Shown here: positions 2,348-31,108 of the stretch, one piece after another | How the letters are laid out: every line of letters begins with the position of its first letter | How positions within the stretch are numbered: position 1 is the stretch's first letter | Virus record (IMG/VR): IMGVR_UViG_3300026541_000012 | Location: 1-41,875 of that record | DNA length: 41,875 nucleotides | DNA from: a virus | Lineage: Duplodnaviria; Caudoviricetes | Reading direction: 5' to 3' (one strand) | Made by a program: the position numbers and the translations under genes | Notes under the pieces: model-generated | The model's database searches: none | What the model was told of the DNA's origin: nothing | The model's input: the letters and a program-made list of their open reading frames with translations, nothing else

Positions 2348-4146
2348 TGGCCGTTCAGAAAATCACAGAATTTACGGCGATCACTACAGCTGATCCAGTC
2401 GATATTCTGCCAATTGTCAATGATATACCTGGCGTTCCCGTTACTCGTAAGATCACTACGGGTAGTTTGCTTGACTCATATAATGACGCTGCTGCTGAGG
2501 TTTCCGCAGCAGTTACGCCATCAGATTACAGGTTCGACTCTGGCAATTCTAGGCGTGTAGGCGATGTCGGTAATGGCACCACAGATGATCGTGATGCATT
2601 AAATACAGCAGATTCGATTGCCAATGTTCGCATTGCGGTTGGTGCAGATTATGGCACTCACTTGATTTCAAGTGATCTGACATTCAATAACAAGGTAACA
2701 ATTTGGCCCGGTGAGATATTAAAACCCGCCAATAGCGTGACAATTACATTTGATAAGTTTGTTAATGCCAACGATTCAGAGCAGATATTTGATCTGTCTT
2801 TGGCTGGTGTTGGCACTGCAATTGTATGGCCCGCGCATGATCGTTATGATGTTCCTGCCGCGTGGTTTGGTGCTATTCCTACTGGCAATGCGACCAAGAA
2901 CGATCAAGACGTCGAAATAAATTATGCCATTAACAGTCTTGCTGCGAGAGGCGGGGTTATTAAACTTGCGCTGGGTGATTATTTTTGTACGGATCGCATT
3001 CAGGTGCAAGAGAATGTGACCCTAAAAGGAGTTCTGAACAGAGGTACTAATTTACGAGTCAGTACGACAAATTGGTCAGGAGCTTTTGATCACTTGATAT
3101 TATTTCAGGACGGTACTGGAACTACGAGCATGTTCAATGCACGACTGGTCGATATTCTGGTGGATGCTGAAAACAACGCTACTGTAGTTAGGGCTATTTG
3201 GGCAAGAGCGTGGAATGAGAATTGTGGATTGTTCAATGTTGTCGTTAGAAACTTCATGGTAGCGGGACTTGAGCTAACCAATTATTACGGTGGTTCGGCA
3301 ACGTCTGAACTTAATACTGTGGAGTTTTTCGCATCAAACAATGCGGTAGCAGCAACACAATTCGGGATACGCTTGGTTGATCCTGGCTTAACGGTTGGCT
3401 GGCATCAGTTTCTGATGTCGCACATTGTATCAGTGGGAAACCCAACCAACGGTGTCACGAATTTTTTTGGTTTGTTTGCGGATGGTCGAGTTAGAGTTAT
3501 CAATAAAGGCGGCTTTCACTCTGAAAAGGCATTGAGTGTCATCGCACTTAGTGGTGACTCTACTTACGAAGGTATTGGACCACAGGCCAGTGGTAATGCA
3601 GATGTGAATCACATTTTCACTGTTGCCAGCAACTGGAATGCAGGTGCAGGTGACATATCGTGTACACCTCCAAAAAAGGGTGGTTCCACCGGGGATTTAT
3701 TGCAAAACAATAGTGCAATAGCCAATATTGCATCGAGTACGGCGAATCCATTTGTTTATCCATTTGTGGTTGAATTGACAGAAGTTGTTACTACCACCAA
3801 CGTCATTACCAGCGATGAAACTGGAAAAACCTTCTATCTTAATTTGGCCGGTGGTTTTACTTCTACCCTTCCGGCTCCATCTGTTGGATTAAAATTCAAA
3901 TTCATTGTTCAAACCGCCCCAACTACTGCCTACATTATTACTACAAACGCCGGGGCAAATATTCTGTTCGGAACGTTTATTGATATTGTCGGTGAGCTGA
4001 CATACTTTTCAGCTCAAGACACACTGAACTTTGTTGCGTCCACATCTGTGGTTGGAGACAGGTTAGAAGTTGAGTCAGACGGTACAAACTGGTTTTGTAA
4101 AGCAATTTCAGGAGCTGACGGTGGAATTACGGTGAGTGTGACATGA
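2347..4146 (+). CDS. tailspike / pectate-lyase-like beta-helix receptor-binding protein
   Basis: GDVGNGTTDDRDALNTA and WFGAIPTG...INYAI beta-helix N-cap motifs, plus a C-terminal fibre module (SDGTNWF). Confidence 0.7.
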   Translation: MAVQKITEFTAITTADPVDILPIVNDIPGVPVTRKITTGSLLDSYNDAAAEVSAAVTPSDYRFDSGNSRRVGDVGNGTTDDRDALNTADSIANVRIAVGADYGTHLISSDLTFNNKVTIWPGEILKPANSVTITFDKFVNANDSEQIFDLSLAGVGTAIVWPAHDRYDVPAAWFGAIPTGNATKNDQDVEINYAINSLAARGGVIKLALGDYFCTDRIQVQENVTLKGVLNRGTNLRVSTTNWSGAFDHLILFQDGTGTTSMFNARLVDILVDAENNATVVRAIWARAWNENCGLFNVVVRNFMVAGLELTNYYGGSATSELNTVEFFASNNAVAATQFGIRLVDPGLTVGWHQFLMSHIVSVGNPTNGVTNFFGLFADGRVRVINKGGFHSEKALSVIALSGDSTYEGIGPQASGNADVNHIFTVASNWNAGAGDISCTPPKKGGSTGDLLQNNSAIANIASSTANPFVYPFVVELTEVVTTTNVITSDETGKTFYLNLAGGFTSTLPAPSVGLKFKFIVQTAPTTAYIITTNAGANILFGTFIDIVGELTYFSAQDTLNFVASTSVVGDRLEVESDGTNWFCKAISGADGGITVSVT

Positions 4147-4604
4147 GATTATCTAAAAACTTTAGTCTTGATGAGTTCTTGCTTTCTCAAACGGCTGAGC
4201 GACACGGCATTAACATGACGCCAACCGATGAGGTTATCGGTAATCTAAAGGCTCTAGTTGAGGACGTGCTGCAGCCCCTTAGAGATCTTGTAGGCTCTCC
4301 CTTGGTGATCTCGTCTGGATACCGGCCTATCGAGTTAAATACCCGTATCGGCGGCTCCAAGACGTCTGCGCACGTATCCGGTAGAGCGGCTGACTTTCGG
4401 GTGATCGGCATGGAGCCTTATGCGGTTTGTGAGATACTGCGGGATGAAGGTTTGCCCTATGATCAAAACATTCATGAGTTTGGCCGCTGGACGCATATTG
4501 GGATTGCCCAGAATAACCGCGATCAGGATTTAACAGCGTATCGTGGTGCTGATGGTAAAACCAAGTACACGCTCGGCATACACTTGATTGAGGATTTATC
4601 ATGA
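4143..4604 (+). CDS. endolysin, peptidase M15A family
   Basis: LSKNFSLDEF, SSGYR..LN..IGG...SAH..GRAAD and WTHIG Zn-peptidase motifs. Confidence 0.9.
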   Translation: MRLSKNFSLDEFLLSQTAERHGINMTPTDEVIGNLKALVEDVLQPLRDLVGSPLVISSGYRPIELNTRIGGSKTSAHVSGRAADFRVIGMEPYAVCEILRDEGLPYDQNIHEFGRWTHIGIAQNNRDQDLTAYRGADGKTKYTLGIHLIEDLS

Positions 4605-4775
4605 TCTGGTTGAATTTCAAGCAATGGAATGCTTCAAGTCCAGGTTGGAAACGAGTTATGTTGAGCAAGTGGTTCTTACCAAGAATCTATCCAAGAGGAT
4701 ATAGGTGGACACCATTTGTTGTGATTCGACTGTCAAGGTTATTCCAGAAGCCAATAGAAATTACAGGGGACTGAC

Positions 4776-4964
4776 ATGAACAAACCATCAAGCACTATTA
4801 CAGCAGCAACATTGGCAGCAACCGGAGTTACCCTTGGTTGGGGATTAGTAGATAACTTCACGGCTCTGAGTATATCGGCCGTAGTAGTCAGTGGGTCTAC
4901 TGCATTTGTCGCAGCAGCTTTTGGTTACTTCACCAAAGAAACTGTACTGCCACTGAAGAAATGA
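4776..4964 (+). CDS. putative holin
   Basis: 62 aa with two hydrophobic segments and a basic C-terminus, next to the endolysin. Confidence 0.65.
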   Translation: MNKPSSTITAATLAATGVTLGWGLVDNFTALSISAVVVSGSTAFVAAAFGYFTKETVLPLKK

Positions 4965-11735: not shown

Positions 11736-11921
11736 ATGAAAACATTTAAAAGCATATGGATTAGTCTAGAATCAGACGAAAAACAAGAACTTGCAGATGA
11801 TTTGGATACTAGTAAACAGTACTTATCGCAGATAGCATACCGCCATCGTCAACCAAGTGCGGATATGATTCGTCGGCTCGTTGCTAGCGATCCACGATTA
11901 CATGCGGAGATGTTTTTGTAA
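11736..11921 (+). CDS. Cro/YdaS-like HTH regulator
   Basis: ELADDLDTSKQYLSQIAYRHRQPS HTH; first gene after the divergent promoter. Confidence 0.75.
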   Translation: MKTFKSIWISLESDEKQELADDLDTSKQYLSQIAYRHRQPSADMIRRLVASDPRLHAEMFL

Positions 11922-12466
11922 TGTATGGAGTTAGCCACGATGATTGGCAAGAATTGCATTGGACCCGGAAAATGCGGTTCAAGGCTTATGCTGATGTTCA
12001 TGCAGCTATTCGTCGTGGCGACATTCCAAAACTAACCAAAGATTCTGTATGTGCTGACTGCGATCAACAAGCTATCGCGTATGAACACAGAAACTATTTT
12101 TATCCGCTAACCGTTGAAGCAGTCTGTACCAAGTGCAATATTTTGCGTGGTGAGGGTTTTCCGCCAGTTGAAGGAAAGTCAGTTAATAGCAATGGTTTAC
12201 CTTATCGGTTTGGTGGTAACAACTCTTGGAATGGCCTGGGTGGTGGCGTAGAAAAGTATACAAAACAGCCCATTGCGGTTAACGCATCAACTAGATTGTC
12301 AGAGCGGGACGAAGTAGATCGACGGTTCGACGGTGGGATGCCCCAGTATCGAATAACTCAATTAAGTGAAATGAATGGCTCAATAAAAGCCATTACACGC
12401 GGTGATCTACGTTACGAGTTTTTCAAAAAGCATGACCCCTATTACATCTGCGAGGACGTTGTATGA
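11921..12466 (+). CDS. HNH-like Zn-binding protein
   Basis: AIRRG..CADC...EHRNY..PL.V..VCTKCN pattern of phage HNH-like domains. Confidence 0.55.
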   Translation: MYGVSHDDWQELHWTRKMRFKAYADVHAAIRRGDIPKLTKDSVCADCDQQAIAYEHRNYFYPLTVEAVCTKCNILRGEGFPPVEGKSVNSNGLPYRFGGNNSWNGLGGGVEKYTKQPIAVNASTRLSERDEVDRRFDGGMPQYRITQLSEMNGSIKAITRGDLRYEFFKKHDPYYICEDVV

Positions 12467-12645
12467 GTCTCAAAGAAAAGTCCTGCCTTACCTGCAAGCT
12501 ACCTTTGCCTTTAAGCATGTACTACCGCGATGGCAACAAGACAGATGGCCGCCGAGCTACCTGTAAGGAATGTGAGAAGGCTCGCAGTCGCATCAGAAGA
12601 CAAGCCAAGATATCGACTATATTAAATAACTGGGGAAGGGCGTGA
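12463..12645 (+). CDS. stand-alone CxxC-CxxC zinc finger
   Basis: KSCLTCK...YYRDGNKTDGRRATCKEC. Confidence 0.6.
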   Translation: MSLKEKSCLTCKLPLPLSMYYRDGNKTDGRRATCKECEKARSRIRRQAKISTILNNWGRA

Positions 12646-16270: not shown

Positions 16271-16386
16271 CTTAGGAGAACCTCAATGAAAGCACTTAAA
16301 TACATCGGACTGTGCATTCTCGTAATAATAGCGGTCGTTGTAATGTTGGCATTCACAGCCTTTTTGCTGGTGCCTGGAGTCATGAT

Positions 16387-16605
16387 GTGACCGAAGATGA
16401 CTCTAAGCGTTGTATTGAGTGCTTCGTACTGAAATATCTGGATCAGTATTATCGCAATAAAAAGTCTGCAGACGGCCGTGTAGGAACGTGCATCAAATGT
16501 AAGTGTGCAACCGCTGAGGCACGCAAGCGCCAGCCTTCGCAAAACTCATTGCTGCTATACCGATGGGCTACTCGCACCAACGAGCAGAATACTGATTACA
16601 ACTGA
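16387..16605 (+). CDS. stand-alone CxxC-CxxC zinc finger (paralog of 12463-12645)
   Basis: KRCIEC...YYRNKKSADGRVGTCIKC; GTG start after GGAG, exact start uncertain. Confidence 0.55.
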   Translation: MTEDDSKRCIECFVLKYLDQYYRNKKSADGRVGTCIKCKCATAEARKRQPSQNSLLLYRWATRTNEQNTDYN

Positions 16606-22828: not shown

Positions 22829-22900
22829 ATGCCAGGACATACACCACCAGAACGAGCCAAGCGCCGGAAACAAAAGAAGAAAACCAAGCGGAAGAAATAG
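22829..22900 (+). CDS. very small basic peptide (23 aa)
   Basis: AGGAG RBS; MPGHTPPERAKRRKQKKKTKRKK. Confidence 0.5.
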   Translation: MPGHTPPERAKRRKQKKKTKRKK

Positions 22901-23047
22901 ATGCCACTGAAGAAAGGTAGCAGCAAGAAGACAGTTTCCAGTAATATCAGGGAGCTGAAGCGTGCTGGTAAGCCGCAGAAACAGGCTGTTGCGATTGCAT
23001 TGAGTGAAGCCAGAGGTGGCAAGAAGCGACGTAAACGCAAGAAATGA
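22901..23047 (+). CDS. small basic phage protein (MPLKKG...QAVAIALS family)
   Basis: MPLKKGSSKKTVSSNIRELKRAGKPQKQAVAIALSEARGGKKRRKRKK, read manually. Confidence 0.75.
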   Translation: MPLKKGSSKKTVSSNIRELKRAGKPQKQAVAIALSEARGGKKRRKRKK

Positions 23048-23051
23048 TTAT

Positions 23052-23198
23052 CGCGGGATGGCGGAATTGGTAGACGCGCCTTCCTAGTAGCAATAGCTCA
23101 ACGCGAGGGTATTGTGGCTAACGCATTGGAATGAGGATTAGAGTGCGGTATGCCAGAGGGTCCTTGAAATGTAGGTTCGAGTCCTGCTCCCGCGACCA
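23052..23198 (+). ncRNA. 147-nt tRNA-like RNA (Leu-type D/T arms, CCA end) with a structured insert in place of the anticodon loop
   Basis: CGCGGGA/TCCCGCG-A-CCA acceptor; TGGCGGAATTGGTAGACGC D-arm; GTAGG-TTCGAGT-CCTGC T-arm. Confidence 0.8.
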
Positions 23199-23212
23199 TT
23201 TTAGGCATGATG

Positions 23213-23241
23213 TTCCACGATTATATATACTGACTAAGTGG
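23213..23241 (+). repeat. direct repeat copy 1 (promoter-like)
   Basis: TTCCACGATTATATATACTGACTAAGTGG; 23/29 identical to copy 2. Confidence 0.65.
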
Positions 23242-23264
23242 AATAACAATGGAGTAAATATAAA

Positions 23265-23795
23265 ATGAAAAGGATTATATGGCTGGTACTCCTACTGCCG
23301 ATATTTGCATGGGCCGCAGAAACCCCACAAACAATTCAAAATGCTGCTGATATTCAGACACTTGAGAATACAGTAGGCAATATAGAGGTTGAACAGGCTA
23401 TTCAAGATACAAGGTTAGATTCCTTGGACGTGGAACAGCTTGTTCAGAACACAAGGTTGGATACGCTTGAGGCCGTTAACGGTGGTGGATCTGGGCCGAG
23501 CGAATTACCTGTGTCTTGTGTCACTGGAAGTTCACAGGGCGAAATACATATTGTTGGTGGCTGGCTTAGTCAGGTTCATGTGATTAATTCAGCAACTAAC
23601 AACAACCATGTGCATATCAGAGATATCGAGATATTCAAAATTGCCAGTTTTGCAGCAATTCAAGCGAAACCCAATAACAGCACCGTTTTCATACAAATTT
23701 CTGCAGCTTTTGCAAGTATTCAAGATGCAAGTGTTTGTATGCACGATCTTTTGCCATTATTGACCGAGAACGCGACAGTTATTAACACGCTATAG
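23265..23795 (+). CDS. secreted hypothetical protein (moron-like) with coiled coil
   Basis: Signal peptide ending AWA; tandem EQxxQxTRLDxL repeats. Confidence 0.65.
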   Translation: MKRIIWLVLLLPIFAWAAETPQTIQNAADIQTLENTVGNIEVEQAIQDTRLDSLDVEQLVQNTRLDTLEAVNGGGSGPSELPVSCVTGSSQGEIHIVGGWLSQVHVINSATNNNHVHIRDIEIFKIASFAAIQAKPNNSTVFIQISAAFASIQDASVCMHDLLPLLTENATVINTL

Positions 23796-23865: not shown

Positions 23866-24636
23866 ATGAGCATTGTTTGGTCTTGTGGTGGTGGTACACA
23901 GTCAGCTGCAATAGCGGCATTGATTATCCAGGGCAAATTGCCAAGACCTGATTTATCTGTGATTTCTGATACTGGTCGTGAAGCGTCAGAAACTTGGTCT
24001 TTCTTTCATAAATTTATGTATCCGCAGCTAAAAGATGCTGGTGTGATATTGCATCGCATTCCGCATAGTTTTAATGGTAACGGTTTGAATACGGTTGATC
24101 TGTTTTCAGGTAAGAAGAAGAAAACGATTGTTGTGCCAATGTATACGACCGAAGCGCAAGGCCAACATGAAGGGATGTTGCCGAAATACTGTTCAAATGA
24201 ATGGAAGTCTCGGCCAGTGCAGCGGTTCATTAGAAATCAAGGACTGACTTCCGGAGAGATTTGGATCGGGTTTTCTATTGATGAAATGGACCGGATGAGA
24301 GGCAGGGATCTTCGGCAAAAATGGAATCATACTTATCCGCTCGTTGATCTTAGATTAACTCGTGGCGATTGCATGTTGTTGGTTGAGGAAATGGGATGGG
24401 GGATACCACCACGATCAGCTTGCTGGATGTGTCCCTATAGGAACGATCAGGAATGGCTGATGATAAAGGGAACCGAAGATTTCGACAAAGCGGTGGCGCT
24501 AGAAAAGGAGCTGCAAGAATCTGACCCGGATGTCTATTTCCATAGTTCTTGTAAGCCTTTGGAGCAAGTTGATTTTAATGAAAATCAGGGCGATCTATTT
24601 TCCAAGCCATGTGCCAGCGGGATGTGTTTTACATGA
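23866..24636 (+). CDS. PAPS-reductase-family / PP-loop adenine nucleotide alpha-hydrolase
   Basis: SCGGGTQS PP-loop, SDTGRE, C.NEWK..P, WIGFSIDE, RSACWMCP and terminal CASGMC. Confidence 0.8.
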   Translation: MSIVWSCGGGTQSAAIAALIIQGKLPRPDLSVISDTGREASETWSFFHKFMYPQLKDAGVILHRIPHSFNGNGLNTVDLFSGKKKKTIVVPMYTTEAQGQHEGMLPKYCSNEWKSRPVQRFIRNQGLTSGEIWIGFSIDEMDRMRGRDLRQKWNHTYPLVDLRLTRGDCMLLVEEMGWGIPPRSACWMCPYRNDQEWLMIKGTEDFDKAVALEKELQESDPDVYFHSSCKPLEQVDFNENQGDLFSKPCASGMCFT

Positions 24637-29803: not shown

Positions 29804-31108
29804 ATGGCTAACAATTTAACAAGTAACGTCACCCGACAGTTGATGCGGGTCTTCTTGAAGCATTTCGAGTCAAATCGAGTTGTGACAAAGACCATCAACA
29901 CGCAGCTTTTTGAGGGTAAATTCACACCGGCATCGGGAACGACTGTGGACATCAAGCGTCCGCACGACTACACCACGATTCGGACCGCAGGCGGTGATAT
30001 CTCATCGTCTCAGAAAGACGACATCATTTCCGGTAAGGCAACGGCTACGGTTCAGCCATATTTCACCGCTGCAACAGAGTGGGGAAATGTCGAGGAAGCT
30101 TTAGAACTGGATCAGCTAGATCAGATCCTCGCGCCGATGGCTAGACGCATGGTTACCGACCTTGAGACAGATCTAACTGACTTCATGATGAAAAACTCTG
30201 GGCTTGTCCAGGGTGCGCCGGGCACTGCAGTCACGGCGTGGTCGGATGTTGCGAAGGCTAGCGCACTTTTAAGCACGATCGGAGTTCCGGGTGACATGCC
30301 GTGGTATTACCTGATAAACCCGTTTACTCAGGTAACTCTTGCAGACCTGCAGGGCGGCGGAACAAACGCGACGACCAGAGGTGCTGGTAATATGACCGAG
30401 GGCATGGTTGCCTCGGCATGGCAAAAGGCGCAAATCAGTCGTGACTTCGGCGGCATGGCAGCGCTAACATCTCAGGCGCTGGCGTCATACACCACAGCTG
30501 TTACAACCGATCAGGCTGGCGCAGTTAATGGTGCTCCAACACCGACGTATATCTCATCTAAAGACACGCATCAGATGAGTATTATAGTTGACGCCTTCAC
30601 GGATAGCGTCACTGTTCCTGCGGGAACCACTGTCGAGATTCCAACACGGTTCTTGCTGAATCAGTCGACCAGGGAGCCAGCACTGGATGCTGCGGGTGCG
30701 AATATTCCGTGGCGTGGTGTTTTGGTAGCCGATGCGGTTCTCACGGCAGGTGCGGGTACGTTCATTGTGTCAAGTCCGGCGACGTTCGATTCAGGAACGG
30801 AAAACCCGCAGTACAACACTGTTGTAGCGGCTATCGCTGATAATGATGTGATCAATATCATTCCAGATACCGATGCGGCGACTACGTTCCAGCCGAACCT
30901 GTTCTATCACCCGCAAGCCTTTAGTTTGGCAAGTGTCAGGTTGCCGAAGCTCTTCTCAACGGATACTACGGTAATCACCGAGGATGGTTTCAGCTTACGA
31001 GTCAGTAAGTACGCAGACGGTGATGCCAACCAGCAGAAAGTCAGGTTCGATCTTTTGCCTGCTTATGCCGCGCTTAACCCGTGGTTTGCGGGACACGGTT
31101 GGAAGTAA
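29804..31108 (+). CDS. major capsid protein (P22 coat-like)
   Basis: MANNLTSN..., GTTVDIKRP and VRFDLLPAYAALNP. Confidence 0.9.
   Translation: MANNLTSNVTRQLMRVFLKHFESNRVVTKTINTQLFEGKFTPASGTTVDIKRPHDYTTIRTAGGDISSSQKDDIISGKATATVQPYFTAATEWGNVEEALELDQLDQILAPMARRMVTDLETDLTDFMMKNSGLVQGAPGTAVTAWSDVAKASALLSTIGVPGDMPWYYLINPFTQVTLADLQGGGTNATTRGAGNMTEGMVASAWQKAQISRDFGGMAALTSQALASYTTAVTTDQAGAVNGAPTPTYISSKDTHQMSIIVDAFTDSVTVPAGTTVEIPTRFLLNQSTREPALDAAGANIPWRGVLVADAVLTAGAGTFIVSSPATFDSGTENPQYNTVVAAIADNDVINIIPDTDAATTFQPNLFYHPQAFSLASVRLPKLFSTDTTVITEDGFSLRVSKYADGDANQQKVRFDLLPAYAALNPWFAGHGWK

Follow-up and report, generated by a model that had tools for sequence, protein, structure and literature searches.

What does a phage gain from a gene that has the body of a tRNA but a large insert, predicted to fold, where the anticodon loop belongs? 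The window analysed here is an entire linear virus record of 41,875 bases, estimated to be 63% complete, and is a podophage contig in which the terminase, P22-type portal, scaffold, capsid and ejection genes lie downstream of a 147-nt tRNA-framed RNA gene. Our preferred reading, to which we assign a probability of about one half, is that this optional phage RNA is a natural tRNA-Leu-type scaffold framing a 72-nt working insert. Below we describe the RNA, its presence and absence in relatives, the wider class to which it belongs, and the explanations that compete with this reading.

Anatomy of the RNA gene and its insert

A preliminary description had proposed an intact tRNA body (acceptor stem, A73-CCA, Leu-type D arm and T arm) in which an insert replaces the 7-nt anticodon loop, and all of these elements could be read directly from the sequence (Table 1). 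The acceptor stem forms seven of seven Watson-Crick pairs (pair probabilities 0.81-1.0), not one pair is broken in the acceptor, D and T stems, and a 72-nt insert (23084-23155) lies within the closing stem at the anticodon position. As encoded, the gene thus appears to specify a non-decoding RNA, without a loop to read codons, as had been suggested. Our frame finder made a single match in the window and none in 100 of 100 base-shuffled windows. ARAGORN called no tRNA gene anywhere in the window; with introns allowed and a lowered threshold it made 29 calls across it, which we took as noise. Rfam gave no match for the RNA at the gathering score and, below it, a partial tRNA match to its 3' part (15.5 bits, E 2.9). 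A promoter and terminator scan was at chance level (4 versus 2.6 and 1 versus 1.1, respectively). tmRNAs combine a G3-U70 acceptor with a tag reading frame; the acceptor here has C3-G70 and hence no G3-U70, in line with the preliminary description, and neither ARAGORN nor Rfam found a tmRNA, so this candidate was rejected.

Table 1. Coordinates of the RNA gene, its parts and its immediate neighbours in the window.
Feature	Positions	Strand	Details
Upstream basic ORF	22901..23047	+	48 aa, phrog_2423; stop codon 4 nt upstream of the RNA; bounds the empty site on the left
tRNA-framed RNA gene	23052..23198	+	147 nt, C1 through encoded CCA
Acceptor stem, 5' strand	23052..23058	+	C1-G72, G4-C69, G5-C68; partner strand 23188-23194
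U8 and Leu-type D arm	23059..23078	+	A14, A15, G18G19, A20a; D arm itself 23061-23077
Closing (anticodon-position) stem, 5' strand CCTTC	23079..23083	+	Pairs with GAGGG 23156-23160, one U-G pair
Insert hairpin A (predicted, weak)	23090..23115	+	Pair probability ~0.05; shorter hairpin at the same junction position in L213
Insert hairpin B	23116..23154	+	GGC/GCC base, CGCATT/AGTGCG helix, apical GAGGAT; pair probability ~0.76
Variable region	23161..23170	+	10 nt, stemless, U48 at end
T arm	23171..23187	+	G49-C65, U50-G64, A51-U63
Discriminator A73 and encoded CCA	23195..23198	+	A73 at 23195, CCA 23196-23198; from sequence
AT-rich trailer	23199..23264	+	29% GC; gained or lost jointly with the RNA
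Downstream ORF	23265..23795	+	176 aa, without a known family; bounds the empty site of L114 on the right

The two hairpins originally drawn within the insert fared differently. Hairpin B is well predicted and extends beyond that drawing through its basal GGC/GCC, giving a predicted three-way junction, whereas hairpin A is poorly predicted, and the two-hairpin model lies 3.3 kcal/mol above the minimum energy. When the window copy is folded alone, the closing stem has a pair probability of ~0; the D stem fares little better in the same fold (0.04), as is known to happen with such models. Compared with shuffled sequences, the whole RNA (z -0.96) and the insert (z -0.3) show no added stability. 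Within the insert, folding energy alone would thus back hairpin B only, hairpin A and the closing stem being supported via a single, distant homologue, L213, and not by folding energy. Six pairs are possible between 23161-23166 and 23132-23137, with four at the matching place in L213; the variable region and the apical GAGGAT could therefore form a candidate pseudoknot, drawn from these two sequences only. A Shine-Dalgarno-like motif and a GUG inside the insert were considered as a coding signal and dropped, there being no conserved reading frame.

An optional gene with one homologous insert

The RNA gene sits within a long run of + strand genes preceding the terminase and is the sole tRNA-like gene of the contig, in which ARAGORN found no ordinary tRNA. 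The window phage is uncultured, and the nearest cultured terminases are 39-44% identical to its own. In one close relative (L114; terminase 90% identical) the same flanking ORFs lie 5 nt apart, as against 217 nt in the window; in two others (L115 and L131) the upstream ORF is present and different DNA follows it; and in a contig of run X2 position 23024 is joined directly to 23245. These empty sites identify the RNA gene as an accessory, optional cassette. A contig of run X1 is identical to the window over 23040-23139 (100 nt at the gene), while 7 of 70 upstream bases differ (Fisher p 0.002; a single contig at depth 2.6), a pattern that counts towards a working payload but could also reflect recent transfer. 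The preliminary description had raised the prospect of relatives carrying an ordinary tRNA here; this was looked for and none was found. A tRNA-type frame occurred in none of 80 terminase-related loci, many of which do not span the site, ARAGORN called no gene in 57 terminase-related loci, and five related records read whole gave no more than two calls, an ordinary tRNA-Pro and an implausible intron-bearing one. A packaging-RNA role was dropped, given the gene's absence from close relatives.

Several features of the surroundings deserve mention in their own right. A PAPS-reductase-family gene (phrog_424; 23866-24636), located between the RNA and the terminase, is not there in L114, L115 or L131, and the region between RNA and terminase looks like an accessory-gene hot spot. 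Two tiny Lys/Arg-rich ORFs (22829-22900 and 22901-23047) are conserved among related phages, and L114 has, at its positions 4430-4830, a ~430-base insertion between the two small basic ORFs that is not in the window. Elsewhere in the window (11921-12645 and 16312-16605) three ORFs have a small Zn-finger-like endonuclease/Lar-type match.

A single homologue of the insert was identified, on a metagenome contig of 91.5 kb (L213), in an RNA that is likewise 147 nt long and likewise has C1-G72. Among 126 other inserts, that of L213 was the top match to the window insert (z 7.1; 0 of 5000 shuffles), its frame-constrained minimum-energy fold contains the closing stem, a short hairpin A and hairpin B, and the apical GAGGAT of hairpin B is common to both. 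In an alignment made by hand with the structure in mind, in which the 5' third of the insert (the hairpin A region) can be placed in two ways, we count four two-sided changes between the two RNAs, of which two fall in the acceptor, one in hairpin A and one in hairpin B, plus three one-sided changes; the shared helices have no broken pair, and the closing stem is kept, with U-G becoming C-G. Conservation of the insert between the two RNAs suggests that it is probably more than filler. No third member of this insert family was found: scans of viral contigs with five subfamily patterns returned 0, 1 (a non-member), 0, 0, 32 and 0 matches, none of the 32, which came from one subfamily pattern, having both a D and a T arm; the subfamily pattern scan of GTDB genomes returned 0; and nhmmer with the insert across the collected loci gave nothing significant, L213 included.

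These comparisons bear on three explanations in which the insert would not act as a folded payload. One is that the gene is a neutral or decaying passenger of recent acquisition, as the lack of the gene in the closest relatives and the lack of a fold signal beyond shuffles might suggest; the unbroken acceptor, D and T stems, the conserved homologue in an unrelated context and the identical gene stretch in the divergent X1 strain leave this a slim likelihood. A second, even fainter, is an antisense regulator matured from a tRNA-like precursor in the style of C4 of phage P1, an antisense RNA from such a precursor that is complementary to an mRNA of its own genome. A purine-rich apical motif is indeed exposed in both the window and L213 copies, but the longest word that the insert shares with the rest of the contig on either strand has 11 nt, the length most often seen among 200 shuffles.

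The third is that the RNA is an intron-bearing tRNA. Group I introns have a catalytic core of ~200 nt or more, with a U before the 5' splice site and a terminal G; the insert, at 72 nt, is too short for one, as had been recognised, and with no Rfam intron match and no U-then-terminal-G junction giving a sound loop in an excision scan, this type was rejected. So was an archaeal-type tRNA intron, defined by a bulge-helix-bulge at 37/38, where only two of four central pairs are found when the junctions are read by hand against the usual geometry. An intron of unknown type remains very improbable. Removal of 65 nt at 37/38 would give the loop CU-AGU-AA (Thr), with U33 and a purine at 37; in L213 no excision yields U33, which argues against the splicing to a normal tRNA that the preliminary description had considered. 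The window product would, moreover, put a Thr anticodon on a Leu body whose 10-nt variable region has no arm, Y32-U33-R37 is obtained in only 9 of the 105 insert clusters of the wider class, and relatives are without the entire gene, not merely the insert. In favour of such an intron, phage tRNA genes with unexplained inserts or "introns" are reported for Lak megaphages (PMC6784885); insert-less copies exist in relatives there, and none was found for the window RNA.

A wider class of tRNA-framed RNAs and its known relatives

To place the RNA in a broader context, we used as a class pattern one exact D-arm / 80-110 nt / T-arm pattern. In viral contigs this gave at least 113 matches from 23 of 64 parts (~340 estimated overall), 84 with a fully paired acceptor, and in metagenome contigs at least 120 from 12 of 64 parts, 85 with a fully paired acceptor. 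Removal of duplicates and two tandem-tRNA artefacts left 141 sequences in 105 insert clusters. GTDB genomes yielded 78 matches, of which 25 passed the filter, five of these being assembly duplicates of ordinary tRNAs; the existence of GTDB members makes the class phage-enriched, not phage-only. No ordinary tRNA lay within the examined flanks of 31 of 39 viral member loci.

U8 and U48, which the search pattern leaves unfixed, are kept in 104 of the 105 clusters, and the T stem is completely paired in every one, indicating, across these 141 sequences, a folded elbow under selection and inserts that are free to vary. A73 is present in 82 of 105 clusters, as compared with 50 of 51 ordinary tRNAs sharing that D arm (p 7e-4). 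The class also has a T-stem signature relative to the 51 ordinary tRNAs (C50-G64, 93 versus 5; A51-U63, 92 versus 29), while C1-G72 is found in four of its clusters and in none of the controls. Only six clusters, the window RNA among them, combine an encoded CCA with every E. coli leucylation determinant. Eight other insert clusters have at least three members, and half of these show 4-5 two-sided pair changes and half none, as counted on structures derived from the same alignments. The acceptor strand AGTCAGG with A1-U72, common to 39 of 105 clusters, suggests one prolific founder frame. A closing stem directly after the D arm was rejected as a class rule, since it occurs in only 42 of 105 clusters, against a mean of 26 and a maximum of 40 in shuffles.

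The set is mixed. In L045 and L112, around 1501-1617, the D arm is followed by the insert and then by a UAA anticodon arm that looks intact; these represent another subtype, with the anticodon arm retained behind the insert. A further member, L323, has two additional T-arm-like hairpins inside its insert.

The architecture is already on record as an annotation, albeit one that is barely described. T5 RNA1 (GenBank AY543070.1, misc_RNA 30501-30644) is labelled "tRNA-like stable RNA with unknown functions". Like the window RNA, this 144-nt RNA has the same Leu-type D loop, U8, U48 and a T arm in the normal arm order, and neither has a 7-nt anticodon loop, the distance from D to T arm being 93 nt in the window RNA and ~80 nt in T5 RNA1. 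They differ at the acceptor end: in T5 RNA1 positions 1 and 72 are mismatched and A73-CCA is missing from its canonical position, whereas the window RNA has both the pair and A73-CCA. They also differ in setting, T5 RNA1 belonging to the tRNA array of a large siphophage and the window RNA being a lone, optional gene of a small podophage. T5 RNA1 recurs in 487 of 50,697 phage records; in a blastn search of the same records with the window RNA, matches covered the D or T arm only and never the insert. Judged by sequence, T5 RNA1 would be the prototype of the class. The T5 locus (L327) contains seven annotated small RNAs without known function (285-645, 1809-1980, 2839-3084 and 3878-3950), of which RNA1 and RNA2 have T arms. 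The small stable RNAs rnaC and rnaD of phage T4 (species 1 and 2 RNA, AF158101.6) also come from a tRNA cluster, and rnaC has a T arm; unlike the window RNA they have no Leu-type D loop, and no sequence likeness was seen. Rfam 15 has no family for the class, and a literature search whose reach excluded most subscription journals and the old T4/T5 work turned up no paper describing it. What is new here is the insert family shared by the window and L213, together with the gene's behaviour as a lone optional cassette.

A second point of comparison is the bacterial Y RNA YrlA (Rfam RF02553). Like the window RNA, YrlA has the D and T arms of a tRNA, a further module at the anticodon position and an A15-U48 type Levitt pair; unlike it, YrlA is circularly permuted, with the T arm before the D arm, and has both the motif GNCGAAN0-1G and an rsr gene within 4 kb (PMC4201824). 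The window RNA resembles YrlA with a reversed topology. An rsr (Ro60) gene adjoins five of 20 cellular class members, and no such neighbour was seen within the short flanks of the 138 viral or metagenome member loci. Among 50 Rsr loci examined, 15 contain a total of 28 tRNA-framed RNAs with one conserved module in the anticodon slot, which shows that a conserved module can occupy this slot. Beside rsr, mostly in cyanobacteria, tRNA-framed RNAs form arrays of as many as five members (L362, L369, L388, L412, L427 and L448-L468); with their normal strand order and common module these are likely unpermuted Y RNAs. Weak Rsr-like genes also lie by pattern matches that fail the acceptor filter (L383 and L387), the L387 genome having three TROVE-type genes.

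Might the window RNA itself be a diverged, unpermuted Y-like RNA that binds host Ro60/Rsr? The shared frame beside rsr genes speaks for this, as does a 12-nt stretch common to the window insert and the rsr module, the insert ranking second of 120 targets. That overlap is the whole of the match (-3.1 bits, E 24), L213 has no score, the YrlA motif is absent, and no TROVE/Rsr gene was matched in the 63% complete contig. By sequence the insert does not appear to be the Rsr-adjacent module, and a Y-like identity is accordingly only a slender prospect.

Scaffold, decoy or aminoacyl carrier

The remaining explanations place the working part in the tRNA half of the molecule. The window RNA has A73, A15-U48, G18G19, A20a, G18-U55, G19-C56 and U54-A58, and so all of the E. 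coli leucylation determinants given in PMC9976931. The 7-nt anticodon loop and long variable arm of ordinary tRNA-Leu are both absent. According to PMC2377443, the anticodon arm is dispensable for leucine charging, and loss of the variable arm lowers Aquifex charging ~13-fold (activity 0.08). With every determinant present and these arms partly dispensable, leucine charging is plausible, and the earlier argument that LeuRS might accept the RNA holds on paper; but the relaxation of A73 across the class implies that the class as a whole is maintained for something other than leucine charging. Predicted EF-Tu binding, from the additive T-stem values in Table 2 of PMC3239215, is +1.1 kcal/mol for the window RNA, weaker than in 51 of 51 controls, with means of +0.44 for the class and +0.13 kcal/mol for controls.

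A leucine-charged aminoacyl carrier, used off the ribosome or draining LeuRS, would fit the determinants, the dispensable anticodon arm and the weak predicted EF-Tu binding. Counting against it are the absence of any aminoacyl-tRNA-using enzyme among the scanned ORFs of the 63% complete contig, a C1-G72 pair that no ordinary control shares, the missing variable arm and the 23 of 105 class members without A73. We regard it as a poor bet.

The main rival to a scaffold is a nuclease-proof decoy for host proteins that read the elbow or acceptor end, such as body-cutting tRNases, acceptor-end toxins and uncharged-tRNA sensors, the insert then serving only to keep the RNA from the ribosome and from anticodon nucleases. 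Anticodon nucleases read the anticodon loop. A decoy would be useless against such enzymes because this loop is missing, which makes the anticodon-nuclease decoy of the preliminary description unlikely; a decoy role of the body is more credible against body-reading enzymes, such as PtuAB, which cuts tRNA at 47/48 according to PMC12673091. For this alone a simple hairpin would suffice, yet the insert is a large one, and L213 conserves it. We therefore hold the decoy to be unlikely, though well short of negligible.

Returning to the scaffold, the observations behind it are the anatomy of the RNA, its presence and absence in relatives, one conserved homologue and the class-wide core positions. 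It is the simplest account of an elbow that is kept, a charging identity that is relaxed and large inserts that are swapped, some with compensatory changes; the splicing, antisense, Y RNA and decay readings are unlikely. The module found in the anticodon slot at Rsr loci is a natural precedent for one frame with a working module. There is also a designed precedent, artificial where the window RNA is natural: in engineered tRNA scaffolds (PMC3753655), the acceptor, D and T arms protect RNA inserted in the same anticodon-stem slot. We envisage that the RNA is transcribed together with the flanking + strand genes and that its body would be excised from the late transcript by host tRNA-processing enzymes (RNase P and 3' processing), the tRNA body acting as a handle for processing and stability that may protect the RNA. 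It would be poorly delivered to ribosomes, with leucylation possible. The work itself would be done by the insert with its predicted three-way junction, whose partner is most likely a host protein, either RNA-binding or anti-phage, a target that is our guess. Counting against the scaffold, the window RNA's full leucylation set and encoded CCA suit an acceptor-end role, and the insert family has one homologue, with hairpin A and the closing stem not favoured by energy in the window copy.

A broader version, which we offer tentatively and think doubtful, is that the tRNA-Leu-like frame is a phage plug-in chassis for at least 100 unrelated payloads, a mobile aptamer library directed against host proteins, with the window gene as a pseudoknotted three-way-junction cassette that moves in and out of a podophage lineage and the Ro60-binding Y-like RNAs as the sole payload with a named partner. 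If true, the proposed aptamer targets would be host defence or RNA-metabolism proteins. The window copy offers a clean test case, being single and optional, with natural empty-site relatives and full leucylation determinants, and L213 defines which features of the insert matter. Stable phage RNAs like T5 RNA1 are missed by standard annotation, and whether such RNAs are scaffolds or decoys bears on a possible, unrecognised layer of phage counter-defence.
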